Part shown: piece by piece, positions 8,402 through 51,096 of the stretch
Layout of the letters: each line of letters starts with the position of its first letter
How positions within the stretch are numbered: the first letter of the stretch is position 1
The notes under the pieces: model-generated
Seen by the model: only the letters and a program-made list of their open reading frames with translations
Told to the model about the DNA's origin: nothing
Database searches by the model: none
DNA from: Desulfurococcales archaeon
Lineage (GTDB): Archaea; Thermoproteota; Thermoprotei_A; Sulfolobales; NBVN01
Length of the DNA: 64,000 nt
Reading direction: 5' to 3'
Assembly: GCA_015523295.1 (NCBI GenBank)
Contig: WAKQ01000010.1
Span: 59,021-123,020, forward strand
Program-made: the position numbers and the translations under genes

Positions 8402-9763
8402 TCACTTCTTGTATAACCTAGCTCTATACTCACTGAATAGGTCATCCACCCTACTGACCCAGGCTTTCAATCCCTTACTTTTTTGCGGGTAGTTCATGTA
8501 GGCATCCTTGACTTTACCCATGTAATCCGCTACTATCTTGAGCTGGAGGAGGAGGGACGGCCTTCTCAGTCCGGCAAGGAGTCTCATGGCCTTATCAACA
8601 ATGCCCAGTTCCAGGTCGCCTTTAAGCGATACAGTATTAAGGTCTTCCTCCTTAATCAACTTTTTCCTCATACCGTATTCCAGTTCTTCATCACTTAATT
8701 CCTGAAGGAACATTCTAAAAACATCTAGAGCTGCCTGCTTAGCACCGTATCTGCTCATATAGCATTTATTTACCTCCCATAGGGCGTCATTATCCCATTT
8801 ACCTTGGGCTTCTTCAAGAGCGTGAGAAAGACACCAGGCGGAGAGCATAGCTGAGCCCTTTCCTCCACCATGTATTGGATTTACTGTGTAAGCAGAGTCC
8901 CCTATTGCTGCTATTCCATTCCACACAAGAGTGTTGATAGGTCTCCTTGTGGGAACTGCAGCACCGCCTGACTCAATAACCTTGCTTTCACGAAGTTCAG
9001 CCCTGTTCAGTACTTTGGTATACAATAGGTCCTTCGGATGGGGATAGCCCCTCCCTCCCTGAACGCCTAAACCTATATTAACAGTGTGAGGCTCCATCGA
9101 GTAGGGGAAGAACCACCAGTACCCTCCAGGGGCTTTATCCTTAGAGACGTAAATCCTAAGTATCTCAGGCTCTTCAATATCTTTCTTCAATTCCCGTATC
9201 TCCCTGTAAGCGACATTCATTTCAGTAGGATTCAGCTCATCCCGTATGGGCCACTCACGCGGTAACTTTCTTATAAGTGCTCTAGACATTCCCGTGGCAT
9301 CGACCAGGAGGTTGGTGCTAACTTCCCATGAACCTTTCCTCCTACTCCAAAGGACAGCTCCTTTAACTATGCCGTCCTTGATAACGGGATCCTTGACCTG
9401 GGTTTCTTGGAAGTATTCAGCACCGTTATCAATAGCTAGCCTGATGAATCTCTGTGTGAAGGCAACTCGGTTAACCTCGAAGCCCTCCCCAAGAACCCTA
9501 TACTTCATCCCCTCTGAAGGGGAGTAGACGTCAATACCTCTTACTAAACCCTCAAGTTCCCCATTCCTGGGATACTCTATGCCAAGCTCATCTAAGTGAT
9601 GTTTTCCAATAGCATCTCCGCAGGGCTTATCACCGGCGCGGTGGAAGGGCTTCACATCAGCTAACAATACCTTAAACCCCTTCCTGCTGATGAAGTAAGC
9701 AGCTGAGGCACCCGCTATACCTGCACCAGCTATGACAACATCATATTTTTCCATTAAGGCCAC
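8402..9763 (-). CDS. Geranylgeranyl reductase family flavoprotein (digeranylgeranylglycerophospholipid reductase-like)
   Basis: N-terminal FAD fold YDVVIAGAGIAGASAAY, PCGDAIG motif, GDSAYTVNPIHGGG. 453 aa. Confidence 0.8.
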   Translation of the reverse strand: MALMEKYDVVIAGAGIAGASAAYFISRKGFKVLLADVKPFHRAGDKPCGDAIGKHHLDELGIEYPRNGELEGLVRGIDVYSPSEGMKYRVLGEGFEVNRVAFTQRFIRLAIDNGAEYFQETQVKDPVIKDGIVKGAVLWSRRKGSWEVSTNLLVDATGMSRALIRKLPREWPIRDELNPTEMNVAYREIRELKKDIEEPEILRIYVSKDKAPGGYWWFFPYSMEPHTVNIGLGVQGGRGYPHPKDLLYTKVLNRAELRESKVIESGGAAVPTRRPINTLVWNGIAAIGDSAYTVNPIHGGGKGSAMLSAWCLSHALEEAQGKWDNDALWEVNKCYMSRYGAKQAALDVFRMFLQELSDEELEYGMRKKLIKEEDLNTVSLKGDLELGIVDKAMRLLAGLRRPSLLLQLKIVADYMGKVKDAYMNYPQKSKGLKAWVSRVDDLFSEYRARLYKK

Positions 9764-12954: not shown

Positions 12955-13064
12955 GCGGGGGTGCCCGAGCTCGGCCAAAGGGGGCGGGCTCAAGACCTTC
13001 CGGCTATGCGGGAGAGACCCGCTGGCGTAGGCCTGCGTGGGTTCGAATCCCACCCCCCGCACCA
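12955..13064 (+). tRNA. tRNA-Leu (CAA) with 22-nt intron at 37/38 and encoded CCA
   Basis: Acceptor GCGGGGG/CCCCCGC with discriminator A and CCA. Anticodon stem GCGGG/CCCGC with loop CUCAAG[intron 12995..13016]A. Long variable arm UGGCGUAGGCCUGCG. T arm GUGGG-UUCGAAU-CCCAC. Confidence 0.85.
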
Positions 13065-15667: not shown

Positions 15668-15765
15668 GGGGCCGTAGTTTAGCTTGGGAGAATGCGGGGC
15701 TTGGGTCCTCACTCACACGGCAGGAACCCCCGTGGTCCGGGGTTCAAATCCCCGCGGCCCCACCA
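15668..15765 (+). tRNA. tRNA-Pro (UGG) with about 21-nt intron at 37/38 and encoded CCA
   Basis: Acceptor GGGGCCG/CGGCCCC plus A-CCA. Anticodon stem CGGGG/CCCCG with loop CUUGGG[intron 15706..15726]C. T arm CGGGG-UUCAAAU-CCCCG. Confidence 0.8.
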
Positions 15766-20188: not shown

Positions 20189-20638
20189 TTATACAGCCAG
20201 TGAAACATTAGCTTCTTTACTTATAGATAATAGTGCATAGAGCCCAGCTATCAGCATTATCCAGCCTAGGATGAAGAGCGCCGTAGCTATCGGGAAAGGC
20301 AACATGAAGTATGGTGCGTAAGCAGTGACCACATATCCCAACCCCATAGAAGTCGATATCCACAGGGACTGAATTGTGGGTACGGCAATCCCTTGAGGGT
20401 TACCGGGGTCTCTTTTATAGACAACCGGTATATACACGATCGAAGCAAGAACTATTATAGTTCCTAGAGTTAGCGAAAGGTAGAACCCCCTGTAGTTACC
20501 TGCCATGGTTCCCATGGCTAAGGTTATAAGTCCCAGCACTAGCATGAAAGATAGCATACCTAAGGATTTCTTCTTGAGTGCATTCCCTTTATCCATTAGC
20601 CCCACCTCAGAATCCTGTTTCCTTCTCAATCCACTCAC
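20189..20638 (-). CDS. Small integral membrane protein (4 predicted TM), likely accessory to the upstream permease
   Basis: Hydrophobic 149-aa ORF. The likely start is the internal ATG at 20596 (MDKGNALKKK), which removes the overlap with the permease gene. Confidence 0.45.
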   Translation of the reverse strand: MSGLRRKQDSEVGLMDKGNALKKKSLGMLSFMLVLGLITLAMGTMAGNYRGFYLSLTLGTIIVLASIVYIPVVYKRDPGNPQGIAVPTIQSLWISTSMGLGYVVTAYAPYFMLPFPIATALFILGWIMLIAGLYALLSISKEANVSLAV

Positions 20639-21983
20639 CCACCTCCCATTTGATACCGGCCTTTGCCATGGGTATTGCTATTAGTAAATAGAGGAAGAAC
20701 GCGGATAGTACTCCATTCACTACTGGTGTTCCGAGGCCGTAAACCCCTGAGAGCCATGCGATAATGCCTCCTAGGAGAGTTGCCGTTAATCCTGGAATGT
20801 TTATTGCTGCGTATTTGGTGCCTGGCCCAAACTTATACCTGGTCTTTATATCTTTGAGCCCTAACACATAAGGCCGGAATATGTAGAAGTCTGCAATGAG
20901 TACTGCACCCACAGGTGGTATGAAGTAACCCAACAACGACGCGAATTGGATGAAGGGATCTAAGCTCATACCCCATAGGCCTGCCCATACGCCAGCTATC
21001 AAGGTTCCTATAGTACCCAAGATGAGCACCCATGCCTTCTTGTTCAGCTTGCCTGTAGTGTTTATCCATGCTAGAGCGGCGCTCCATACGTTGTTGTCGT
21101 TGGTGGTCCATTGCCCTAGAATTGCTAGGAGGAGTGCACCTACACCTAGGCCTATTTGAGCTATTGCTACTATTACGTTAGGCGTTTTAGTCAGTAGAGT
21201 CATTACTCCTCCAGCAAACAGAAGTGCAGTCATGAAGATAGTCACATGCGTCGCCCAAGCTACAGCACCAGACCAAGGCTTCCTACCATACCTTGCAACG
21301 TCCGAAGTTATCACTGAACCCGACGCGTAGACTCCAACCACGTAGGTGATTCCTGCTCCTAGAGGGGCTATTACCTCAGGCCTTACTGTCCATACCTTGC
21401 TAAAGCCACCGGCTAGGTCTATAGAAGCGAAGAACCCTATAACTACTAAAGTGTACCAGAAGGGGACGGTTATATAGCTAAGTATTGCCATCGCCCTAAA
21501 TCCATAGTATGCAGTGATCATCATTAGAAAGCCACCCCATAAGGAGGCGGCAGCTATCGAAGTAAGGACATTATGGGGATAGATTACATTAACGGTTATC
21601 CCAAAGAGCCAGGTCTCGACAGCGAACCATACAATCAGTGGTATGGCGGATACTATCAAGTTGCCAATTATGGAGCCAATTCTTCCCAAGGGGTATCGTA
21701 GGATCATGTATGTGTTTGCCCTTGTTGAACCTCCAATATAAGCGATGAGGCCGCCGAAGATAGCAAGGATGATATTCCCTAACAACGCTACCTCCAGCAT
21801 CGTTGCTGCATCATACATTTGGGCTAGGCCTGAACCAGCGAAGATTGCTGCAACGACCGCGAGAACGCCCATGTAGATCATGAAGATGTTCAAGGTTGAC
21901 TTGGTTTCACTTTCAGGGATGGTTAATGTTGCGTAATCACCGTACACATCTTTTCTTTCAGCGTGCTTCTCGGCCTGTGACAT
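20607..21983 (-). CDS. NCS1-family (purine-cytosine / hydantoin / allantoin type) permease
   Basis: 458 aa with about 12 TM. The topology and glycine- and tryptophan-rich helices are typical of CodB/Mhp1-type transporters. Confidence 0.7.
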   Translation of the reverse strand: MSQAEKHAERKDVYGDYATLTIPESETKSTLNIFMIYMGVLAVVAAIFAGSGLAQMYDAATMLEVALLGNIILAIFGGLIAYIGGSTRANTYMILRYPLGRIGSIIGNLIVSAIPLIVWFAVETWLFGITVNVIYPHNVLTSIAAASLWGGFLMMITAYYGFRAMAILSYITVPFWYTLVVIGFFASIDLAGGFSKVWTVRPEVIAPLGAGITYVVGVYASGSVITSDVARYGRKPWSGAVAWATHVTIFMTALLFAGGVMTLLTKTPNVIVAIAQIGLGVGALLLAILGQWTTNDNNVWSAALAWINTTGKLNKKAWVLILGTIGTLIAGVWAGLWGMSLDPFIQFASLLGYFIPPVGAVLIADFYIFRPYVLGLKDIKTRYKFGPGTKYAAINIPGLTATLLGGIIAWLSGVYGLGTPVVNGVLSAFFLYLLIAIPMAKAGIKWEVGEWIEKETGF

Positions 21984-22202
21984 TCAGGTCACACCTTAAG
22001 GGGTATTAAATGTATATATTTTTTAAGTGTTATTAAACAAAATTATTGTAAAAACATGATTAGCATCCCAGAATGAATATTTGTATAGTTAGATTAATGT
22101 TTAGCAACAATTGAATAAATCCTTCAATCTTGTGGATTTTTTCCTATTAGAGAATAAGATTTTTTAGCCCGTAGCTCTCCCCACTAACGTAACTGGGTCG
22201 AG

Positions 22203-23297
22203 GTGGTAGTCACGAAGTTAACTCGTCAGGATATTGAAGACCTTGCTTTAGGCGCAACTGTTTTAGGTACTGGAGGGGGAGGCGATCCCTACATTGGTAA
22301 GTTGATGGCTATTCAAGCCCTCGAGAGAGGAGGCGAGATTGAGTTGATGGATCCTGATGTGGTTGATGATGACGCGTTTGTGGTGGCTGTGGCAGGGATG
22401 GGAGCCCCCGTAGTGATGATTGAGAAGACTCCTAGCGGCAAGGAAGCTGCTGCCTCACTAATTAGTTTAGAGAAGTACTTCGGTAGGAAGGCGGATTACA
22501 TCATAAGTATTGAGGCGGGGGGACTTAACTCGACAATACCCTTAGCAACGGCTGCTGAGCTGAAGAGGCCAGTTCTTGACGGGGATGGCATGGGGAGAGC
22601 ATTCCCTGAGCTGCAGATGGTAACCTTCCATCTTTATGGGGTGAAGGCGACACCGATGTCTATGGCTGACGAGAAAGGAAACTCAGTTATCCTCGATACC
22701 GTAGATAACTTCTGGGCTGAGAAGATCGCTAGGGCTATCACCGTGAAGTTTGGCGGTGTCGCCTGGATATCCATATATCCGATGAGTGGGAGAAAATACA
22801 AAGAGGCGGCAGTTAAATATTCCCTAACTAAAGAAATAGAGATTGGAAGAGCATTAAATGATGCCAAGAAGCAGGGAAAGAACCCGCTAGATGTTCTTCT
22901 TGACGTAACTCGAGGTTACCACCTTTTCACAGGAAAGATTGTTGACGTTGTGAGGAGAGCGACAGGTGGGTTTGCTAGAGGAGAGGCTGTCATAGAGGGT
23001 TTGGAGGATTTCAAAGGCTCTAAACTTGTGATCAGATTCCAGAATGAGAATCTCATAGCTATTAGGGATGGTGAAGTCCTGGCTTCAGTCCCTGATCTAA
23101 TAACCGTTGTAGACAAGGATAGTGCAAGGCCTATCACTACTGAGAGGCTTAAGTACGGATTGAGGGTCGCTGTATTAGGAATACCCTGCGATCCTAAATG
23201 GAGGAGTGAGAAGGCGTTAGAGGTTGTTGGCCCTAAGTACTTCGGATATGATATTGAGTACGTACCCATTGAGGAAGCTGTGAAAAAGTGGGGGTGA
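22203..23297 (+). CDS. DUF917-family protein
   Basis: N-terminal LGTGGGGDPYIGK motif and DGDGMGRAFPELQM. 364 aa. Translationally coupled to the next gene by a 10-nt overlap. Confidence 0.65.
   Translation: MVVTKLTRQDIEDLALGATVLGTGGGGDPYIGKLMAIQALERGGEIELMDPDVVDDDAFVVAVAGMGAPVVMIEKTPSGKEAAASLISLEKYFGRKADYIISIEAGGLNSTIPLATAAELKRPVLDGDGMGRAFPELQMVTFHLYGVKATPMSMADEKGNSVILDTVDNFWAEKIARAITVKFGGVAWISIYPMSGRKYKEAAVKYSLTKEIEIGRALNDAKKQGKNPLDVLLDVTRGYHLFTGKIVDVVRRATGGFARGEAVIEGLEDFKGSKLVIRFQNENLIAIRDGEVLASVPDLITVVDKDSARPITTERLKYGLRVAVLGIPCDPKWRSEKALEVVGPKYFGYDIEYVPIEEAVKKWG
22872..22925. repeat. 54-bp segment inside the DUF917 gene, duplicated exactly in inverted orientation at 26352..26405
   Basis: cagggaaagaacccgctagatgttcttcttgacgtaactcgaggttaccacctt is the exact reverse complement of 26352..26405. 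Confidence 0.9.
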
Positions 23298-24874
23298 AAC
23301 CGATGGCTAAGGTAAGAATCGGGATAGACGTAGGAAGCACTCACACAGACTCTGTAGCCATTAATGAGAGAAACGAGGTTATCCACGCAGTTAAAGCTAG
23401 GACAACCTCAGACGTGACCTCAGGCATTATAAAGAGCTTGCGCAAGCTCATCATAGGGGGTAACCTAAAAACTGATGATGTAGTCGCCGTAATGTTCGGA
23501 ACAACTCATATCCTTAACGCAATAGTGCAGAGGAAAGGCTTGAGCAAGGTTGGGGTGTTGAGGATCGGTGCCCCTGCAACAACAGCTATTGAACCTATGC
23601 TTGACTGGCCTGAAGACCTTAGAGTTGCAGTTGAAGGAGCAAAATACATTGTCAGAGGAGGCCATGAGTATACTGGTGATGAGATAGCACCATTAGATGA
23701 GGAAGAGGTTAGGAAGGCAGCTATGAATTTCGCTGAAAGAGGTGTAGACTCAGTTGCGATAACCGGTGTATTTTCTATAGTAAACCCCGAGCATGAGTTG
23801 AGAGCATCCGAAATTATAAGAGAGCTTCTCCCTAGCATCCCTATAGTGATGTCGCATGAGATAGGGAGTATGGGTCTCCTTGAAAGAGAGAATGCAACAA
23901 TCCTTAATGCTGCATCCATTGGCGCTATGAGGAAAGCTATAAGAAGCCTGAGAGAAAGCCTTAATGATCTCGGGCTTCAGGACACGCCAATGTTCTTTGC
24001 TCAAAACGACGGTACTACGGCTAGAGCCGACTTCATAGAAAAGTACCCTATATTCACGGTAGTTGCCCCAATTTCAAACAGCCTTAGAGGCGCATATGTT
24101 CTAACAGGGATTAAAGACGCGATAGTTGTAGATACAGGGGGCACTACAAGCAATATAGGTGTCCTGACTAAGGGCTATCCTAGAGAGGCCCTCGAGATAG
24201 AGATAGGCGGCGTTAGAACTAACATTCGTTCCCCTGACATAGTTGCTATAGGTCTTGCAGGGGGCTCCATTGTGAAGGTATCTGATGGTAAGGTAAGGGT
24301 AGGTCCCGTAAGCGTTGGATATAAGCTTATAGAGGAAGGTATTTCATGGGGAGGGAGCACAATAACGGCCACAGACATAGCGATAGCTAAAGGGGTTATG
24401 AAGATCGATGATCCTGGATGCGATCCTGAGAGAGCTAAGAAGCTTATACCTCCTGAAATTGTGGAGAAGGCCTATGAGTACATGGTGAGCAAGCTAGAGG
24501 AATCCATAGATAAGGTTAAGACCTCTCCCGAACCGGAAACAGTTATCCTTGTAGGTGGCGGTTCACTCATGTGGCCTAAGAGGCTAAGAGGGGCAAAGGA
24601 AGTCATCAGACCTAAATACGCACAGTCAGCCAACGCGCTAGGGGCTGCGACAGCATTGGTAGGAGGGCTTGTTGAGAAGGCATTCTCATATGATCACATA
24701 AAGAGAGAGGATGCCATCAAGATAGCTTCAGAGGAAGCTACGAGGAAGGCTATCATGGCTGGTGCCGACCCGACTACGGTAGAGATCATGGAGGTAGAGG
24801 AGATCGCTCTCCCATATCTTCCAGGAAATGCCGTGAAGATAAGGGTTAAGGCAGTAGGCAAGCTCAAACTTTAA
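23288..24874 (+). CDS. Hydantoinase/oxoprolinase-family (HyuA-like, ASKHA ATPase fold) protein
   Basis: N-terminal RIGIDVGSTHTDS, VDTGGTTSNIG and LVGGGS motifs. 528 aa. Confidence 0.7.
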   Translation: MGVKPMAKVRIGIDVGSTHTDSVAINERNEVIHAVKARTTSDVTSGIIKSLRKLIIGGNLKTDDVVAVMFGTTHILNAIVQRKGLSKVGVLRIGAPATTAIEPMLDWPEDLRVAVEGAKYIVRGGHEYTGDEIAPLDEEEVRKAAMNFAERGVDSVAITGVFSIVNPEHELRASEIIRELLPSIPIVMSHEIGSMGLLERENATILNAASIGAMRKAIRSLRESLNDLGLQDTPMFFAQNDGTTARADFIEKYPIFTVVAPISNSLRGAYVLTGIKDAIVVDTGGTTSNIGVLTKGYPREALEIEIGGVRTNIRSPDIVAIGLAGGSIVKVSDGKVRVGPVSVGYKLIEEGISWGGSTITATDIAIAKGVMKIDDPGCDPERAKKLIPPEIVEKAYEYMVSKLEESIDKVKTSPEPETVILVGGGSLMWPKRLRGAKEVIRPKYAQSANALGAATALVGGLVEKAFSYDHIKREDAIKIASEEATRKAIMAGADPTTVEIMEVEEIALPYLPGNAVKIRVKAVGKLKL

Positions 24875-25028
24875 AACTGGTTCATTAACTCATTTGACCT
24901 TCACCTTCATTATCTTTCGAGACTAGGAATACAATTTATCTTTATGTTAACTTTAACTTTCCTTACTCGTAATTATATTATCGGGGTCATTCATAAAAGT
25001 AAAGATTCTCGGAAGCGAGAGCCTAGGT

Positions 25029-26000
25029 GTGAGGGGGCTTTCATGTTTAATCGAAACTAGGGATGCTAGGATTCTCATAGACCCTGGTATTGCCTTAGGC
25101 TTCACAAGATGGGGTCTTCATCCACATCCTGTCCAAGCAGTGGCGGGTGATATCATTCGGAAAGAGATCATTGACGATTGGAGGAGTGCGGACTATGTAG
25201 TTTTGAGCCATATGCATGGAGATCACGTTCCTCTCTTTAATGCTAATCCTTTTCAGCTGGATCTCAGCAGATTAACCTGTAGGGAGGGTTTGAAGATCAT
25301 TGCCCCGCCAGGTGGTGGCCCCTCTCGTGTTCAAAGAGAAAGACTAAGTAAGATAAAGTCATTGGAATGTGTTAAAGTAAGTGAGGTAAGGGGGACTGAA
25401 TTCTCAGAAGGTCCAATAACTGTCTACAGACCATATGCTCATGGATTGTCCAATAGTTCAACTGTAATGATCACTCTCATAGACTCAGATGAGAGGATAG
25501 TGCATGCTTCAGATACTCAGCTATTAAATTCAGAGGCTGCCCACCTCATAAATAGGCTCAAGCCTGATTTAGTAATAACTGATGGACCTCCAATATATAG
25601 GTACTTGAGCAGGCCTGAAATCATGGATACATTGCTGAGAACTGCTGAGAGAAATCTCAAAATAATCACCTCTCAAGCCTCTAAAGTGATCATAGATCAC
25701 CACCTTCTCAGGCATGACGAAGGCTATCAATGGCTTGCAAAGATGAAAAAGGCCTTAAAGGACACACTGATACAATCAGCTGCAGAATACATGGGTAGAA
25801 AGCCACTCCTGCTTGAGGCGTGGAGAAGAACGCTCTACTACCACTATCCCGTAAACAATAATTGGTTTATCAGCATGTATAGGCCAGAAGTAGAGAAACA
25901 TTTCCCGATATACGTTGAGATCGTGAAGGCTTCTCCCAAACTTAACGAGATCTCTGAAAAAAGTTTTGATAAGCTTTTATATACACTCGAAAAACAATAA
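25029..26000 (+). CDS. Metallo-beta-lactamase-fold hydrolase
   Basis: LIDPG and HMHGDH (HxHxDH) motifs. The reading frame stays open upstream and encodes a typical first beta-strand (IKVKILGSESLG), so the N-terminus is probably mis-set. Confidence 0.65.
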   Translation: MRGLSCLIETRDARILIDPGIALGFTRWGLHPHPVQAVAGDIIRKEIIDDWRSADYVVLSHMHGDHVPLFNANPFQLDLSRLTCREGLKIIAPPGGGPSRVQRERLSKIKSLECVKVSEVRGTEFSEGPITVYRPYAHGLSNSSTVMITLIDSDERIVHASDTQLLNSEAAHLINRLKPDLVITDGPPIYRYLSRPEIMDTLLRTAERNLKIITSQASKVIIDHHLLRHDEGYQWLAKMKKALKDTLIQSAAEYMGRKPLLLEAWRRTLYYHYPVNNNWFISMYRPEVEKHFPIYVEIVKASPKLNEISEKSFDKLLYTLEKQ

Positions 26001-26048
26001 AAAATAGATGGAAATTCTTAAAGAATATAATTATTTACAGATGTATTT

Positions 26049-26127
26049 TGGTGGGCCCGCGGGGATTTGAACCCCGGACCTCCGCCGTGTAAGGGCGGCA
26101 TCCTAGACCAGGCTAGACGACGGGCCC
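26049..26127 (-). tRNA. tRNA-Val (UAC), intron-less, encoded CCA
   Basis: The minus strand reads GGGCCCG-UC-GUCU-AGCCUGGUCUA-GGAU-G-CCGCC-CUUACAC-GGCGG-AGGUC-CGGGG-UUCAAAU-CCCCG-CGGGCCC-A-CCA. Confidence 0.9.
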
Positions 26128-26351
26128 TGAACTCAATCAGAATTCTATTTAGATTAGCATTAAATAATTTAATGGATTCTTTATGACGAGAGGAACCCTC
26201 TATAGGAATTACAGCTCTCATTAACATAGTTAGCTAGGTCAGTAGCTAATATGAGAATCATTCTGGCTACCTCATCTGGGATCACGCATTCTCCCTTGGA
26301 GCAGTTTATTCTTGAAAATGACGCCTGGTTTGATAATGTCTAGTTTTAACT

Positions 26352-26405
26352 AAGGTGGTAACCTCGAGTTACGTCAAGAAGAACATCTAGCGGGTTCTTT
26401 CCCTG
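26352..26405. repeat. Orphan inverted copy of a 54-bp internal DUF917 gene fragment, in non-coding DNA
   Basis: Exact reverse complement of 22872..22925. The corresponding reading frame is closed by stops on both sides. Confidence 0.9.
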
Positions 26406-26535
26406 ATTTTAGGGATTACTTCTTCCTCAGTTTTTCTACACAAGTGAGAGACTGATTTACTGATGGATATCAAAAAACTCTCACCAAATCAACTAAGGTA
26501 ATATATGGTTGATGTGCAGAGCGAATATTTCGGAT

Positions 26536-27102
26536 TTAGTAATGCGTCCTTGGCTTTAGTAACTCTTTAATAAGGCTTTTCAAAAAACTATAGTATTTAT
26601 TTAGAGGTTCCCTTTCAATAAGAGACCAAACAAAAGCTTCAGTATTTTCAACTATCTCCTTAACATCGTTATAGCCCGTTTTTAAGTATCTAGCGCCTTG
26701 CAAATTAGTTGATAAATTATCTGCGAGCTTAACAATACAAGCCTCAAGGGATTTACAATCATTTAGCTCCTTGATTAACGTTGCATAGTCCTCCAGGCCT
26801 AATTCTCTTAGTGCTTCAAGGTCTAATTTGCTTGAAAGGGAAGAAGTGATATGATCTTTTGACCACTTCACTATGTCTCCGCTTATAGACTCAGGTAGGT
26901 CATGTATTATTGCTATCTTTAAGGCTTTTCCTTGATCAATGTCTATTCCGTGCTTCGCTAATGCTTCAGTAATGAGTAAAGTTAAGAAAGCTACCTCGAA
27001 AGTGTGTTCGGCTACACTCTCCGCCACTTCGTGGGGAACACCTCTTAACATCCAACCTGTTCTAGCAAGAGCTTTTAAATTCATGATTTTCTCGTAGTCC
27101 AT
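26536..27102 (-). CDS. HD-domain phosphohydrolase (YfbR-like 5'-nucleotidase type)
   Basis: RTGW...ESVAEHTFEVA and IHDLPESISGD motifs. 188 aa. Confidence 0.7.
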   Translation of the reverse strand: MDYEKIMNLKALARTGWMLRGVPHEVAESVAEHTFEVAFLTLLITEALAKHGIDIDQGKALKIAIIHDLPESISGDIVKWSKDHITSSLSSKLDLEALRELGLEDYATLIKELNDCKSLEACIVKLADNLSTNLQGARYLKTGYNDVKEIVENTEAFVWSLIEREPLNKYYSFLKSLIKELLKPRTHY

Positions 27103-41267: not shown

Positions 41268-41780
41268 CTATTCTTTGCTTATCTCAGCAACTTTTGTCGT
41301 CCCTTTCCTGAGCTCCTCAGCGGCTTTCATTGCAGCTTTTACGATGTTCACGTAGCCCGTGCATCTGCAAAGGTTTCCTCTTATATAGTCCCTGATCTCC
41401 TCCTCGGTTGGATTGGGATTCTCTTTAAGTAGCTTATCTATCATTATGACGAAGCCTGGGGTGCAGTAACCACATTGGACACCGGCCTCCTCTATAAGAG
41501 CCTTCTGCACTAAAGTTAGCTCCCTGCTTTTCGCAAGGCCTTCCACGGTAGTCACTTCATGACCGTCTACGTCAACTGCCAGAGTAAGGCATGAGAGGAC
41601 CGGCTCGCCATCAAGTAACACGGTGCAGGCCCCACATTCACCAATTCCGCAAACATATTTGGGTCCTGTATATCCGAACTTCTCCCTGAGCAGGTTTAGC
41701 AGTAGCTCGTTAGGCTCGACCTCTGTCCTGACTTTTTGCCCGTTAAGCGTGAACTCTATAGGTATCTTCATTTCATCCAC
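41268..41780 (-). CDS. Molybdopterin hydroxylase small subunit, [2Fe-2S] (CoxS/CutC type), cluster 1
   Basis: CGIGECGACTV, QCGYCTPGF and NLCRCTGY motifs. Confidence 0.85.
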   Translation of the reverse strand: MDEMKIPIEFTLNGQKVRTEVEPNELLLNLLREKFGYTGPKYVCGIGECGACTVLLDGEPVLSCLTLAVDVDGHEVTTVEGLAKSRELTLVQKALIEEAGVQCGYCTPGFVIMIDKLLKENPNPTEEEIRDYIRGNLCRCTGYVNIVKAAMKAAEELRKGTTKVAEISKE

Positions 41781-42706
41781 CCCTTAACAACCCTCTCGTG
41801 AGAAAGGATGAGCGCGTCCTCAACTATAACTTTAGAGACTTCTCTACGGTAAAACGCTGTTGACCTGACGTCGTCGATAGGGCTTATTTCCGTCTCAACA
41901 AGCTTTACGTTCTCCCTTATGACCTCGGGGGTGAAGGGTTTGCCTTTTAAGGCCTCTTCTGTTTTCCAAGCTCGTACTGGTGTGGGAGCAGCCGACCCTA
42001 TTGCTATCCTAGCGAACTTAATTCTGCCGTCCTCCACCTTCACTGCAGTTGCTGCACTTATTTTAGCTAGGTCCATTGCCGTCCTGGCCACCTTGATGAA
42101 CGCTGAACCTGTTCCTGGTTCAGGCTTAGGTATTATTATCTCTTTCAGGAGCTCGTCAGGCCTCATCACTGTCTTACCAGGTCCTTTGAAGAACTGGGTT
42201 ATTGGTACTTCTCTCTCCCCTTCCCTGCTCGCTAGTATTAGGCGTGCTTCAAGAACCATCAGCGGCGGGGCGCTGTCAGCTGCCGGAGAAGCATTACACA
42301 AATTACCCCCAATAGTGGCCATGTTCCTTATTTGAGTTCCTCCCATAGCCTTAACTGCATCGTAGAGTGCAGGGAAGTACTTCATTATTACGTCAGATCT
42401 CTCAAGCTCCCTCCACTTGGTGAGGGCCCCTATACGTACTTCACCGCCTTCATCGCGTATGTAGCTGAGTTCCTTAAGCTTCTTGATGTTGATCACGTAT
42501 TTCGGCTCGACAACCCTCATCTTCATCTTCACTAGCAGGTCAGTGCCACCTGCAAGAACTTTTGCCTCACTACCATACTTATTCAGTAATTCCAATGCCT
42601 CCTCAAGCGATGAAGGTGCGAAGTATTCGAACCTTACTGGTATTATATGCGTATTATACAGGTTATGTCTTGAAGGCCTTATATTGACTTGGGTCATGTC
42701 TTTCAC
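41768..42706 (-). CDS. Molybdopterin hydroxylase medium subunit, FAD-binding (CoxM/CutB type), cluster 1
   Basis: AGGTDL and GGNLCNASPAADS motifs, with C-terminal ISPIDDVRSTAFYRR. 312 aa. Confidence 0.85.
   Translation of the reverse strand: MKDMTQVNIRPSRHNLYNTHIIPVRFEYFAPSSLEEALELLNKYGSEAKVLAGGTDLLVKMKMRVVEPKYVINIKKLKELSYIRDEGGEVRIGALTKWRELERSDVIMKYFPALYDAVKAMGGTQIRNMATIGGNLCNASPAADSAPPLMVLEARLILASREGEREVPITQFFKGPGKTVMRPDELLKEIIIPKPEPGTGSAFIKVARTAMDLAKISAATAVKVEDGRIKFARIAIGSAAPTPVRAWKTEEALKGKPFTPEVIRENVKLVETEISPIDDVRSTAFYRREVSKVIVEDALILSHERVVKGWMK
42128..42319. repeat. Near-identical tract shared with the paralogous FAD-subunit gene at 50070..50261 (inverted orientation)
   Basis: 42179..42319 matches 50070..50210 at 139/141 nt, and both differences are synonymous. 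42128..42157 matches 50232..50261 at 30/30. The 21 nt between these blocks and the flanks outside them are strongly diverged. Confidence 0.9.
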
Positions 42707-45057
42707 CTCCCTTTCTTCTTAAGGGCTTCAAGGATTCTTTCTGGGGTTATGGGCAGCTCGTAGAACCGCACTCCTATCGCGTTGTAGATAGCGTTAGCGA
42801 CGGCCCCAGCAACCGAGTTAAGTGCGGCTTCACCCAGTCCCTTAGCTCCGTGAGGTCCTGTGGGTTCGTAGGTGTGAGCGAATATAACCTGGAAGTCATC
42901 TAATTTAGGCATGTCTGGCGCTGTCAGGATCTTGTAGTCGGTTATGAAGCCCTTATTCGTTAGCTCACCTGTTCTGGGATCGTATATCGTGTCTTCTAAT
43001 GTAGCCATCCCCCAACCCTGGGCAAATCCTCCATGGAGCTGTCCTGCAGCATAGTCTGGGTTTATCACGGTTCCAATATCGGCGCCTGCAATTACCTTAA
43101 CTGGCCTCACCTTCCCCGTGTATGTATCTACCTCGACCTCAACAAAGTATACTGTGAAGCTGGGCGGTGCAGCCTTAGACCTGTAGGTGACTGTAGTGGA
43201 TATTGTTCCCCAGTTTCTTTGCCATGCTATAGTTGCGAGGTCTTTAAGCGTTATCCTCATCTGCGGGTTATCTCTGACATACACCACTGCCTGCCCAAGT
43301 TCCTTATCATAGCCAAGCTCAAGCATGTCCTGATTTACCGCTTTATTCAGGACTCTTATGGCATAGTTGAATATCTTATTCTTTAATTCTCTAGCTGCCT
43401 GAACTGCAGCACCGCCTCCCACATAGGTACCTCTCGACGCATGCGTACATACGTCGTATAGCGTTGTTTGAGTGTCAGACCACACAAGGTTTATGAGGTC
43501 AGGTGGAACCCCAAGCTCCTCAGCAATTATCTTTACATGAGCGTCAAGTGTACCGCCTCCATGATCCTGTAACGCGGTTATATAGTCAATGGTTCCATCT
43601 TCATTCAACTTCAGTATAGCGCCTGTGTAGTCAATTGTCTCGCCGGAGATAGGCCCTCCTGCACCTGAGGTGTGGAAAGACCTGCCGACGCCTATACCTC
43701 TCCTATATCTCCCCGTCTTCTCAGAGGGTGGTCTCCTCCTCTCCCAGCCGATTAGTTCTTTACCCCTCTGCAGGAGTTCAGGCACTCCATCAGATCTTAT
43801 AATGCTCTTCACGGTAGGACCCTGTCCCCAGAATATATCGCCCTTACCCACATAGTTCTTAAGGCGGAACTCAACCGGGTCAATCCCAAGTTCCTCAGCC
43901 ATCTCATCTATTAGGGTCTCAACAGCCCAAGAGACCTGTGGTGCACCGTAACCTCTAAAGGCGCATGTTGGTACTTTATTTGTGTAGACCGCTTTACCAA
44001 CATATCTTATGTTCTTCCATTTATAGAGGGAGACAAACCATCCTAAAGCAGTTCCTAGTAATGGATATGCCTGAATCTGATGTGCCCCTATGTCCATGAT
44101 GTTCTCAAGTTCTCCGGCAATAAGCGTGCCATCACTTTTAGCTCCAGCACGTATCTTGAAATGCATCTGGTACGCAGCATGGTCATAAATGTCTTCTTCA
44201 CGTGTCATTGATATTTTAACGGGTTTCCTAGCCTTCAGGCATAATGCAACGCTAATTGGCACTACCGGATTTATCTGGATGCTTGACCCGAAGGAGCCTC
44301 CTATAGGCACCTTCACTACGTTGATCTTGCTCATAGGGATGTCAAAGATCTGGCTGATCAGAATTCTAGTGTTATGGATTGTTTGGGTCGTGGAGTATAT
44401 GGTGATGCTCCCATCACTATGGGGTATACAGACAGATGTCTTCGGCTCGAGTTGCATGTGGTACCTTCTGTTAGTTCTGAACCTTCTCTCAAGAACCACG
44501 TCTGCTTCCTTCAGTGCCTTATCTACATCACCCTCACTGTACTCGAGAGTGCATCCAACATTGTTTTTAACATCGATCCACTCATCTCCCTTCAATATCC
44601 TCTTATGTATTAATGGGGCGCTAGGTGACATCGCTTCGAAAGGATCGAGTATAGGTTCATACACTCTTTCGAATTCAACCTTTATTGCCTCAAGAGCTCT
44701 CTGGGCTGCTTCCTCCGTAGGTGCAGCGACCGCCGCGATCGCGTCTCCTAAGTAGCGAGGGTGCTTAGTTAGGACTCTGTAATCCTTGTAGGTCACTTCA
44801 AAGATGCTGACTAATCTAGGATTGAAGATTTTGTCAGGAACATCGTCAGGCGTTATCACGACAGCGCCCATCCTCTCAGCTTCTGAGGTGTCTATCCTCT
44901 TAACGTCTGCGAATGCGTAAGGACTCTTAAAGACCCTGCCAACCAGCATTCCCGGAACATAGATATCGGAAGAGAACTTCAGGGTTCCAGTTACCTTAGG
45001 GATACCATCCTTCCTAATTGTTTTCTTACCAATGAAGATATGTTTCGGTTCCTCCAA
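42703..45057 (-). CDS. Molybdopterin hydroxylase large subunit (xanthine dehydrogenase / aldehyde oxidoreductase / CutA family), cluster 1
   Basis: 784 aa. Family motifs include FRGYGAPQ, EVEVDTYTGKVR and GPHGAKGLGEAA. Confidence 0.85.
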   Translation of the reverse strand: MEEPKHIFIGKKTIRKDGIPKVTGTLKFSSDIYVPGMLVGRVFKSPYAFADVKRIDTSEAERMGAVVITPDDVPDKIFNPRLVSIFEVTYKDYRVLTKHPRYLGDAIAAVAAPTEEAAQRALEAIKVEFERVYEPILDPFEAMSPSAPLIHKRILKGDEWIDVKNNVGCTLEYSEGDVDKALKEADVVLERRFRTNRRYHMQLEPKTSVCIPHSDGSITIYSTTQTIHNTRILISQIFDIPMSKINVVKVPIGGSFGSSIQINPVVPISVALCLKARKPVKISMTREEDIYDHAAYQMHFKIRAGAKSDGTLIAGELENIMDIGAHQIQAYPLLGTALGWFVSLYKWKNIRYVGKAVYTNKVPTCAFRGYGAPQVSWAVETLIDEMAEELGIDPVEFRLKNYVGKGDIFWGQGPTVKSIIRSDGVPELLQRGKELIGWERRRPPSEKTGRYRRGIGVGRSFHTSGAGGPISGETIDYTGAILKLNEDGTIDYITALQDHGGGTLDAHVKIIAEELGVPPDLINLVWSDTQTTLYDVCTHASRGTYVGGGAAVQAARELKNKIFNYAIRVLNKAVNQDMLELGYDKELGQAVVYVRDNPQMRITLKDLATIAWQRNWGTISTTVTYRSKAAPPSFTVYFVEVEVDTYTGKVRPVKVIAGADIGTVINPDYAAGQLHGGFAQGWGMATLEDTIYDPRTGELTNKGFITDYKILTAPDMPKLDDFQVIFAHTYEPTGPHGAKGLGEAALNSVAGAVANAIYNAIGVRFYELPITPERILEALKKKGR

Positions 45058-47385: not shown

Positions 47386-49728
47386 ATGAGTGCAGCAGAA
47401 GATCCGTATACTTTAATGGAGAAATGGCTTAAGGCGAAGGAGTTCTTGGTGGTTGGCAAGGGCGTTAGGAGAGCTGACGCTATTGAAAAAGCTTTAGGAA
47501 TGGCTAGGTACGTTGAAGATTTCTATATGCCAGGCCATATGTTATTTGTTAAGCAGGTGTTAAGCACTGAACCCCATGCAAGGATATTAGGTGTGGATGC
47601 TTCGAAAGCCTTAGAGATTCCAGGTGTTGAGGGGGTATTCACAGCAAAGGATATTCCTGGGGAAAATCAGGTCGGCTATGCTCTGCCTGATCAGCCTCTA
47701 TTAGCTGATGGCAAGGTCAGGTTTGTCGGCGATCTTGTGGCCCTCGTAGCCGCCAGGGATTTCGATACAGCGATAAGGGCTGCTGAAGAGGTCAGGATTA
47801 AATATGAGCCTCTGCCCTATGTTCTAGATCCTCTTGAAGCTATGAAGAGAACCGACGTTTTAGTTCATGAGGAGGTCGGCTCTAACATAGCTTTTAGAAC
47901 CAAGGTAAGAAAGGGCAATGTGGAGGAAGGGTTTGCTAAGTCAGACGTGATCGTAGAGAACGAATATAGGACCCATCATCAAGACCACCTTTACTTAGAG
48001 ACAGAGGGCGCGTTAGCCCTTCCAGAGCTGGGAGACAGGCTTACTGTCATATCGGCAGGCCAGTATCCCCACCTAGTGAGGGCCATAGTGTCGAGGGTTG
48101 TAGGCCTTCCAGAGAGCCATGTTAAGGTGATAATACCCTATATGGGAGGTGGTTTCGGCGGTAAGGATGATGAGGGCCCCTTAGTTGCTGCTAAGGCGGC
48201 GTTGGTTGCAAGGCTTACCGGGAAGCCGTCCTTCCTTCTCTACACAAGGGAAGAATCCCTCATAATGCATCCTAAGAGAGAAGCTACTGTGATTAAGTAC
48301 AAGAGTGGCGCGTCAAAGGATGGAAAGCTGCAGGCCATTGATGTGCAAATAATTCATGATACAGGTGCATTCACTAATAGAGGACCTTTCATATTGTGGA
48401 GGGCGACAGTTCACGCTTCAGGGCCATATAAGGTGCCGCACGCAAAGGTAGACGGATACTGCATATATACCAACAAAGTATACCAAGGTTCCTATAGGGG
48501 ATTCGGAAATCCATCCGTGCAGTTTGCAGCCGAGGCCCAAATGGATAGACTTGCTGAGAAGCTTGGAATGGATCCAGTGGACTTCCGCCTTAAGAACCTT
48601 CTGAGACCTGGAGATACAACAATCACTAATCAGCTCCTAGACCATTCCGTAGGTGTGGCTGATGCAGTTGCAAAACTAGCTGAAACGGCTGGGTGGAGAG
48701 AGAAGAGGGAGAGGTACTCTAAGGAAAACGGAGGAAGGTATAGGAAAGGTATAGGGATAGGAGTCGCTTGGCACGGCATAAGCACCTCCAGAGGCGTGCC
48801 TGACTGGTCTAACGCCTTAGTGAAGATAGAGAAGGACGGGTCGGTTAGTGTGCATACAGGCATTGTTGAGATGGGGCAGGGCTCTCCCGTAAGCTCCCAC
48901 CGTCAAATAGCTGCCGAGATCTTAGGTGCACCCATAGATCTGGTGACTGTTGACTTCGGCACCACTGACGCTCCTGACACTGGGGCGACGCATGCATCAA
49001 GAGGTACAAGTATCGGTGCTATAGGCGTCTATGTAGCGTCAGCTAAGCTTAGAGAGAGGCTAAACAGGCTGGCGGCTGAGCTCCTCGAGACATCACCTGA
49101 CGACATAGTGATTAAGGATGGTAAGGCTTATGCTAGGAGCAATCCCAGCAAGAGTATTAGTTGGAAAGACCTCATCAAGGAGGCTTACGCTAGAGGAGTG
49201 GAGATGAGCGCGACAGGCTACTTCTTCCTACCTAAGGGTAAGTTCGATGACCAGAAAGGGCAGGGCTATGCCTATCCAGCCTTCAGTTATGTTGCTATGA
49301 TAGCTGAGGTCGAGGTAGATACATACACGGGGAAGGTGAGGGTTCTGAGGATATGGCCTGGCCTGGCTGCGGGGAAGATAATAAATCCAACTCAGGTAGA
49401 AGGGCAGGTAGAAGGAGCTGCAGTTCAAGGAATGGGCTATGCCCTAATGGAGCAGTTCGTCTTCGACGATAAGGGCAGGATACTAAACGCTGATATGACT
49501 GACTATGTGATCCCGACAGCTTTAGATGCGCCTGAAATAATGAAGCCTGTATATGTTGAAGACATATTCAAGTATGGACCCTTCGGAGCTAAGGGTGTGG
49601 GTGAGATGGCATTGATACCGGCACCCGCAGCAATAGCTAATGCAGTGTCGAATGCCTTAGGGATCAAGGTTACTAAGCTACCTCTAACCTCAGAGAATGT
49701 TTACTTCCTGATTAAGGGGAAGAGATAG
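47386..49728 (+). CDS. Molybdopterin hydroxylase large subunit, cluster 2
   Basis: 780 aa. Motifs GGGFGGKDD, YRGFGNPS, EVEVDTYTGKVR and GPFGAKGVGEMA. Confidence 0.85.
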   Translation: MSAAEDPYTLMEKWLKAKEFLVVGKGVRRADAIEKALGMARYVEDFYMPGHMLFVKQVLSTEPHARILGVDASKALEIPGVEGVFTAKDIPGENQVGYALPDQPLLADGKVRFVGDLVALVAARDFDTAIRAAEEVRIKYEPLPYVLDPLEAMKRTDVLVHEEVGSNIAFRTKVRKGNVEEGFAKSDVIVENEYRTHHQDHLYLETEGALALPELGDRLTVISAGQYPHLVRAIVSRVVGLPESHVKVIIPYMGGGFGGKDDEGPLVAAKAALVARLTGKPSFLLYTREESLIMHPKREATVIKYKSGASKDGKLQAIDVQIIHDTGAFTNRGPFILWRATVHASGPYKVPHAKVDGYCIYTNKVYQGSYRGFGNPSVQFAAEAQMDRLAEKLGMDPVDFRLKNLLRPGDTTITNQLLDHSVGVADAVAKLAETAGWREKRERYSKENGGRYRKGIGIGVAWHGISTSRGVPDWSNALVKIEKDGSVSVHTGIVEMGQGSPVSSHRQIAAEILGAPIDLVTVDFGTTDAPDTGATHASRGTSIGAIGVYVASAKLRERLNRLAAELLETSPDDIVIKDGKAYARSNPSKSISWKDLIKEAYARGVEMSATGYFFLPKGKFDDQKGQGYAYPAFSYVAMIAEVEVDTYTGKVRVLRIWPGLAAGKIINPTQVEGQVEGAAVQGMGYALMEQFVFDDKGRILNADMTDYVIPTALDAPEIMKPVYVEDIFKYGPFGAKGVGEMALIPAPAAIANAVSNALGIKVTKLPLTSENVYFLIKGKR

Positions 49729-49739
49729 GGGGTGAGAGC

Positions 49740-50626
49740 ATGTTCTACAGGATACCTGAAATAAACTACATATATGTCTCAAAACTTGATGAAGCCCTAG
49801 AGGTCTTACACACGCTGGACAACGCGAGAGTTCTAGCGGGTGGTACTGACCTAGTGATGGATCTGAAAATAGGCCGTATAAGGCCGGAGACCATTGTAGA
49901 CATATCTAGGGTTGACGAGCTTAAGTACATTAAAGATGAGGGGGATTATCTAAGGATCGGTGCTCTAACCACTCTTCAAGATATAGTGGAGTCAAGCCTT
50001 GTAAGGGCTAAAGCTCCTGTACTTGTAAAGGCTGTGAATGAGATGGCCTCATGGCAAGTCCGGAATGTTGCCACTATTGGGGGTAATTTGTGTAATGCTT
50101 CTCCGGCAGCTGACAGCGCCCCGCCGCTGATGGTTCTTGAGGCACGCCTAATACTAGCGAGCAGGGAAGGAGAGAGAGAAGTACCAATAACCCAGTTCTT
50201 CAAAGGACCTAGGAAAACTGAGCTCAGGAAGGACGAGCTCCTGAAAGAGATAATAATACCTTATGAGAGGGGTAGCGGGCAGCACTATATTAAGCTGGGA
50301 AGGAGGGATGCGTTCACTCTCTCCATAGTTTCAGTAGCGGCTTTAGTTAAGGTGAGTAATGGAAAGTTCAGCGATGTGAGAATAGCGCTGAACTCTGTGG
50401 CTCCAACACCTGTAAGAGCCTATGATGCTGAGAACGCATTAAAGGGTAGGGAAGTGAATCTAGAGAATATTGAGAATGTGTCGAAGCTGGTGCTCAACTC
50501 CATATCCCCCCAATAACTGACGTCAGGGCTTCAGCTGAGTACAGGAAAGAGATGTCAGTGGTTTTAACTCGTGATGCATTACTAGCTGCGTTAAAGGATT
50601 TAGGCATTAACTTAGGAGGTGAGTAA
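49740..50626 (+). pseudogene. Molybdopterin hydroxylase FAD-binding medium subunit, cluster 2, interrupted by a frameshift at a C6 run
   Basis: The annotated frame stops at 50514..50516 after ...LNSISPQ. The -1 frame continues as ITDVRASAEYRKEMSVVLTRDALLAALKDLGINLGGE* (to 50626). This is the conserved C-terminus of the family; compare ISPIDDVRSTAFYRRE in cluster 1. Confidence 0.7.
50070..50261. repeat. Partner of the near-identical tract at 42128..42319
   Basis: See 42128..42319. The shared tract encodes ATIGGNLCNASPAADSAPPLMVLEARLILASREGEREVPITQFFKGP, identical in both paralogs. Confidence 0.9.
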
Positions 50627-50628
50627 GC

Positions 50629-51096
50629 ATGGAGGTATTCTTCAAACTAAATGGTCAGCCTGTTAAAGTTGATGTAAAGCCTAACGAGGTGCTGCTAGAT
50701 GTCCTTAGGCTAAAGCTGGGGATCAAGAGTGTCAAGAGGGGATGTGAGAGGGCGGAGTGCGGAACCTGCACAGTACTTCTTGACGGCAAGCCAACATATT
50801 CATGCATGATCCTAGCGCCCTACGTTAATGGAAGGGAAGTAGCAACCATAGAATACCTGAAGGAAAACGGGGAGCTTAAGCCACTGGTTGAGGCCTTCGC
50901 TGATGTAGGAGCTGTCCAATGCGGATTCTGCACACCTGGGTTCCTCTTAACTGTCTATGCCTTCCTGAAGAAGAACCCCAGTCCTACTAGGGAGGAGATA
51001 AAGAAAGCTATAGAGGGTAATCTCTGCAGATGCACAGGCTATAAGAAGATAATCGAAGCTATAGAGCTTGCCAGTAAGAAGATGAAGTCCGGCTAG
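50629..51096 (+). CDS. Molybdopterin hydroxylase small subunit, [2Fe-2S], cluster 2
   Basis: CERAECGTCTV, QCGFCTPGF and NLCRCTGY motifs. A GGAGGTGA Shine-Dalgarno-like sequence lies upstream. Confidence 0.85.
   Translation: MEVFFKLNGQPVKVDVKPNEVLLDVLRLKLGIKSVKRGCERAECGTCTVLLDGKPTYSCMILAPYVNGREVATIEYLKENGELKPLVEAFADVGAVQCGFCTPGFLLTVYAFLKKNPSPTREEIKKAIEGNLCRCTGYKKIIEAIELASKKMKSG

Follow-up and report, generated by a model that had tools for sequence, protein, structure and literature searches.

The window analysed here, a stretch of 64,000 nucleotides, carries an exact inverted copy of 54 nt from inside a DUF917 gene, set in a 408-nt gap beside a tRNA-Val gene. In our view the copy is most likely a neutral templated or captured insertion that arose in a decaying short-chain dehydrogenase (SDR) gene, through break repair or through a template switch during replication. 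Its perfect identity to the donor is a sign of youth and not of selection. The source is a metagenome-assembled archaeon with 45% G+C, and its best GTDB relatives are Thermoprotei/Desulfurococcales metagenome-assembled genomes, at ~50% amino acid identity for the MBL protein.

A BLASTN comparison of the gap with the whole window identified positions 26352..26405 as the exact reverse complement of 22872..22925 (54/54 identity, E 1e-25) and, beyond this match, nothing longer than 13 nt. This confirms both the repeat and its place within the DUF917 coding sequence, as proposed in an earlier sequence-only reading of the same DNA, which had suggested such a self-comparison. The two copies are inverted relative to each other and lie 3426 nt apart (~3.4 kb). 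That reading also held that identity stops abruptly at both ends, which is true of one of them. On the side of the tRNA, identity with DUF917 ends sharply at 26351/26352, but on the side of the neighboring HD-domain gene two of the next three nucleotides still match, extending the copy to 57 nt with one mismatch (22869..22925). Over the next 23 nt on this side, 14 match the donor flank, which is somewhat above chance and unexplained; because the match continues past the edge, the repeat search reports 77 nt at 88%. The copy is non-coding, as had been stated, with the DUF917 frame closed by a TAA two codons upstream and another TAA one codon downstream.

Searching all 64 kb for repeats uncovered no second orphan fragment copy of this kind. 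A different repeat occurs in two divergent, paralogous molybdenum-hydroxylase operons of the xanthine dehydrogenase / CO dehydrogenase type (41268..45057 on the - strand and 47386..51096 on the + strand), which comprise large, FAD and 2Fe-2S subunits. An inverted repeat of 246 nt at 85% identity is common to both, as is a 37-nt patch that matches exactly (43105..43141 / 49305..49341); gene conversion between the paralogues is the probable cause.

The DUF917 gene (22203..23297, + strand) is intact. It encodes a 364-residue, S-Me-THD-like protein that matches Pfam PF06032 and PF20906 over its full length and has thousands of full-length homologues. The copied segment (22872..22925, + strand, reaching 22869 if one mismatch is allowed) corresponds to codons 224-241 and encodes QGKNPLDVLLDVTRGYHL in frame. 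Across 15 DUF917 proteins from Thermoprotei archaea, Thermococcus, Archaeoglobus and Firmicutes, it is conserved and ungapped within the S-Me-THD_C domain. This ungapped conservation within the C-terminal domain identifies the DUF917 gene as the donor and the gap as the site of the copy. We also considered a diverged DUF917 paralogue in the gap and rejected it, since protein-level similarity in TBLASTX and TBLASTN searches is confined to 18 codons. The closest DUF917 gene that we found (L023, from JGI 3300053005) is 95% identical in amino acids and 83.7% in nucleotides, and it differs at 10 of the 54 copied positions, whereas the copy matches the window's own gene at every one. The copying thus took place within this lineage, after its split from L023, and on this comparison the insertion is recent and lineage-specific.

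The gap (26128..26535) had been described as a gene-free stretch next to the 5' end of tRNA-Val. Its position is correct, but it is not gene-free: alignment to related genomes identifies it as a decayed SDR gene, with every part accounted for. Three related loci (L016, L017 and L018) carry an ABC transporter, an HD-domain gene, an SDR gene and tRNA-Val(TAC) on one strand, in the same order and orientation, and their intact SDR (adh_short) has 263 residues; the L018 protein matches PF00106 and PF13561. In all three, the 3' end of SDR and the sequence downstream of it align with window positions 26129..26351 at 77-78% nucleotide identity (BLASTN, E 1e-43 to 1e-47), and residues 208-263 of the L018 SDR match the gap in TBLASTN (E 8e-11). 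This homology to the relatives' SDR 3' end and tRNA promoter stops exactly at the copy.

Every feature of the region lies on the - strand. The tRNA-Val(TAC) gene (26049..26127), detected by both ARAGORN and Rfam, has its 5' end facing the gap and occupies the syntenic position in L016, L017, L018 and two further relatives, L021 and L024. Its upstream region (26128..26180), delimited by alignment to relatives, includes an A/T-rich block, ATCCATTAAATTATTTAAT (26159..26177), that is invariant in the window and the three loci with an intact SDR and is presumably the tRNA-Val promoter. Next comes the SDR 3' remnant (26181..26351), found by BLASTN, TBLASTN and alignments, in which the final ~56 codons survive, broken by +1, +1 and -4 frameshifts and closed by the stop TAA at 26181..26183; its longest surviving open reading frame, of 34 residues, still reads …PDEVARMILILATDLANYVN…. 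The DUF917 copy (26352..26405) follows, with its sense strand on the SDR coding strand, and together with the three junction nucleotides 26406..26408 it forms a 57-nt insertion that has no counterpart in the relatives. Those three nucleotides lead into an internal SDR remnant (26409..26456, the whole segment being 26406..26456) that resembles L018 at about 9221..9262; BLASTN matches 26419..26439 to L018 9236..9257, and pairwise alignment agrees. The SDR 5' remnant (26457..26489, matching L018 8630..8661 in BLASTN) holds the upstream region and the first ~10 codons, with the start ATG changed to ATA and an extra T, and directly after it ~560-575 bp of the gene are deleted. The HD-domain (YfbR-like) gene identified by Pfam (26536..27102) is the upstream neighbor of SDR in the relatives, and its product is 74-79% identical to the HD proteins of L016-L018. 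Apart from this region, Rfam finds a third tRNA in the window at 12955..13061 (+ strand, 107 nt, 40 bits) that ARAGORN misses; an intron is presumably present in it, and likewise in the 98-nt tRNA-Pro at 15668..15765.

Homology to intact orthologues at a syntenic site is accompanied here by disabling lesions, the combination that defines a pseudogene: the start codon is lost, ~560-575 bp of the interior are deleted, the 57-nt insertion brings an in-frame TGA and the 3' part carries the three indels. Other relatives have lost the gene altogether. L024, from the same JGI sample as L023, reads MBL-tRNA-Val-48 nt-HD, and L021 reads tRNA-Val-nitroreductase-HD; both are without SDR and without the fragment. 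By these comparisons, SDR is intact, a remnant or gone among the relatives, and the fragment is confined to the remnant. Across 20607..27102, amino acid identity to L023/L024 falls from 96% for the permease and 95% for DUF917 to 89-94% for the hydantoinase, 77% for MBL and 48% for HD. Given this fall, and the closeness of the HD protein to those of the intact-SDR lineages, the tRNA-Val neighborhood looks like a mosaic or recombination junction.

The intact genes also define the insertion point. In all three, CTAA is joined directly to AGTTAAAAC with nothing in between, and the 57 nt are absent. In wider context, the intact SDR reads …ATACTAA followed immediately by AGTTAAAACTAGAT…, while the - strand of the window reads …TCCCTAA-AAT-(54 nt)-AGTTAAAACTAGAC…; an empty-site allele would join …TTTTAACT straight to TTAGGGATTAC…. 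The insertion removed no SDR bases, and it places a TGA stop in the SDR frame. Three readings fit the AAT at 26406..26408, namely untemplated nucleotides, part of a 57-nt copy that carries a single substitution, or a duplication of the 3 nt AGT in which one base was substituted; the junction microhomology varies from 0 to 3 nt with this assignment. Sequence that is extra relative to orthologues and identical to an ancestral donor copy in the same genome is the hallmark of a templated insertion, and this is what we found.

Comparison with related genomes, which the sequence-only reading had also proposed, revealed no conservation, as the fragment is absent from every relative found (L016, L017, L018, L021 and L024). 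Its 30-mer core is likewise absent from the viral contig and JGI metagenome collections. A gapped pattern of the tRNA-Val promoter plus tRNA had no match in the JGI metagenome contigs, though L017 is itself from a JGI sample, so the collection scanned evidently misses some JGI contigs. GTDB-representative loci found through the MBL protein (L001-L010, <=56% amino acid identity) are too distant and have no DUF917 gene nearby.

Since the sequence is a metagenome-assembled genome and 54 is near a common k of 55, the copy might in principle be a chimeric join or a k-mer-sized false repeat. We find this scarcely credible. The locus recurs in three other assemblies built with different k, with unique flanks on both sides of the copy, although all of these may stem from one sampling campaign and share the same reads. 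GCA_027008205.1 (L011/L013) has the same arrangement with 1 mismatch in 10.9 kb. In the ENA assembly ERZ23495891, the two copies are split between a 287-kb scaffold that carries the one in the gap (L014) and a 30-kb scaffold that carries the one in the gene (L015), both copies having unique flanks, and the 55-nt overlap of these scaffolds falls elsewhere, in the tRNA. A Logan k=31 contig of SRR10312496 (L012) starts at window position 22896, exactly 30 nt (k-1) inside the repeat, which is the behavior expected at a true repeat boundary. Additionally, the DUF917/hydantoinase side and the HD side are adjacent across tRNA-Val in L021 and L024 as well, so the 3.4-kb spacing is no scaffolding error. 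The ENA break itself, within tRNA-Val at window 26049..26103 where the ends of L014 and L015 overlap, suggests co-occurring related strains that share the tRNA and differ on one side of it.

The most striking property of the copy is its perfect complementarity to an mRNA, and the sequence-only reading had put it forward as a trans-acting antisense regulator. In that case, one-step insertion just downstream of an existing TATA-like box and upstream of a T-run would have created an accidental, newborn antisense RNA: a + strand transcript of ~60 nt (about 26374..26436) would pair perfectly with DUF917 codons 224-234 over ~32 nt and thereby damp expression of the DUF917-hydantoinase operon. The copy is indeed flanked by TTTTAAC (26344..26350), just upstream on the + strand, which resembles A/T boxes 30-40 nt upstream of several window genes and is over-represented in the window (22 matches against 8.8 expected), and by runs of four T (26407..26410) and five T (26432..26436), the latter 27 nt downstream of the copy. 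However, the heptamer is ancestral SDR coding sequence that relatives keep for coding reasons; the upstream TTTTAACTA element pointed out earlier is the reverse complement of SDR codons AAG TTA AAA CTA, kept in all three intact genes. TTTTAAC is also common in the window, and when we placed the 22 matches against the list of open reading frames, most fell inside genes. The region matches no Rfam family (the one match, at E 0.71, is at chance level), RNA from the + strand folds no better than shuffled sequence (z -0.38 to -1.41), the fragment is missing from all relatives, and the flanking DNA is visibly decaying. The proposed regulator therefore finds no support, and we regard it as improbable. 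Were it real, it would be an archaeal counterpart of the birth of miRNA genes by template switching (PMC10710096). Like archaeal trans-encoded antisense sRNAs, the copy is a perfect complement of an mRNA at a separate non-coding locus; unlike them, it shows neither conservation nor structure, and any promoter or transcript of its own would be putative. Pairing by known trans-sRNAs is as a rule imperfect and commonly falls close to translation starts or 3' UTRs, rather than covering 54 nt midway through a coding sequence. Nothing observed here points to a function. Most likely the copy is a neutral scar, which in the main settles a false lead: the perfect antisense match is a mutational scar inside a pseudogene.

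Elsewhere in the window, TTTTAAC occurs for example at 1328, 5122, 45090 and 47330, and boxes of the CTTTAA/TTTTAA type lie ~30-40 nt upstream of many start codons. These are probably this organism's flavor of TATA box, with short or absent leaders.

Two further readings would give the repeat a role in rearrangement or trace it to mobile DNA. Being perfect, inverted and 3426 nt apart, the copies could recombine and flip the 3.4-kb segment between them (the DUF917 3' end, hydantoinase, MBL and tRNA-Val) as an on/off switch; the flipped junction would read CAC CTT AGT TAA and truncate DUF917 after residue 241 (…GYHLS, then stop). This is very unlikely, as all four assemblies show one orientation, the DUF917 90% cluster contains only 364-residue members and no 242-residue form, Pfam finds no recombinase gene in or beside the segment, and the repeat itself goes back to a chance insertion in a pseudogene. 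That the copies mark where an integrative element attached at tRNA-Val, or form the ends of a MITE or IS element there, is more doubtful still. tRNA genes are common integration sites in archaea, and around this one gene content varies among relatives and amino acid identity to the closest relative drops sharply. Nonetheless, the repeat is inverted rather than direct and lies 224 nt from the tRNA with no overlap; these 224 nt are colinear with the relatives' SDR 3' end and tRNA-Val promoter, and the enclosed genes encode DUF917, hydantoinase and MBL hydrolase with no integrase or transposase. Nor do MITE or IS ends fit, because one arm belongs to a conserved coding domain, the copies number only two, with none in the viral and metagenome scans, and no clear target-site duplication is seen. 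Of the alternative raised in the sequence-only reading, a recombination or integration scar at the tRNA, the scar survives and the integration at the tRNA does not.

We return to the preferred reading, a templated insertion. An intact SDR gene once separated the HD gene from tRNA-Val on the - strand, and this lineage is losing it. A DNA break or stalled fork would have arisen in this region, and from a free 3' end a short piece of DNA would have been synthesized on an ectopic template of little or no homology, before that end was rejoined to the other one. In this way, 54 nt of the genome's own DUF917 gene, 3.4 kb away, would have been copied in one step and inserted in the inverse orientation on the chromosome. 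Either the repair of a break or a switch at a replication fork would fit. What is seen is a single-site, inverted copy-paste of 54-57 nt into an SDR gene that was already dead or was killed by the insertion, with no transposon-type duplication at the junctions and, by Pfam, no mobile-element genes between the copies, only DUF917, hydantoinase and MBL hydrolase. Several observations weigh against this explanation: the junctions lack a clean signature, with microhomology of 0-3 nt; textbook template switches reach tens to hundreds of bases, compared with 3.4 kb here; 14 of 23 nt past the HD-side boundary match the donor flank; and the TATA-like box and the T5 run might allow fortuitous antisense transcription. 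Two specific routes were considered and set aside. Microhomology priming through an AAGAAG/CTTCTT motif common to both sites predicts junctions that differ from those observed. Off-target spacer integration of the Cas1 type was rejected by reasoning, as the junctions have no repeat-length target duplication; moreover, 54-57 nt is long for a spacer.

As a group, Thermoprotei-like archaea mostly lack Ku, and end joining in them is only now being characterized. By analogy with published work, repair or template switching of the kinds described in PMC12019639 and PMC10710096 would be the most likely mechanism. The PriSL replicative primase of Thermoprotei/Sulfolobales anneals on 2-4 nt of microhomology, polymerizes across discontinuous templates and promotes Ku-independent end joining (PMC12019639), and a single template-switch mutation yields a perfect reverse-complement copy where no similarity existed before (PMC10710096). 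Our literature searches turned up no description of ectopic templated insertion in archaea. The locus would offer a clean natural archaeal case of an inverted insertion of 54-57 nt from an ectopic template, with hardly any homology at the junctions. Its value is modest, and it comes with a view of three stages of one gene's loss among relatives: intact, remnant and gone.

Set beside known systems, the locus most resembles templated (filler) insertions, as made by polymerase-theta end joining in eukaryotes and by PriSL-promoted microhomology-mediated end joining in Sulfolobales (PMC12019639). As in those, a short stretch of the same genome is inserted at a single site, with little or no junction homology, no transposon-type target-site duplication and no mobile-element genes, and the host is a Thermoprotei-like archaeon. 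In contrast, the indels reported from experiments in S. islandicus are mostly 1-2 bp (PMC12019639), compared with an ectopic copy of 54-57 nt here; additionally, the break and the enzyme behind the present insertion are putative. Template-switch mutations (Ripley 1982; Löytynoja & Goldman 2017; PMC10710096) share with it the production, in one event, of a perfect reverse-complement copy that needs no prior similarity. They differ in that the described events are short-range, usually over tens to hundreds of bases, and make local hairpins, whereas here the distance is 3.4 kb and the copy is a pure insertion, not a replacement. The surroundings conform to prokaryotic pseudogene decay, in which remnants persist in spacers: a remnant lies at the syntenic site of an intact orthologue, it has lost its start codon and acquired a large internal deletion and frameshifts, and the gene is wholly lost in other relatives. 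Only the foreign 57-nt patch is unusual for such decay. We conclude that the copy is a new example of an already known kind of event.
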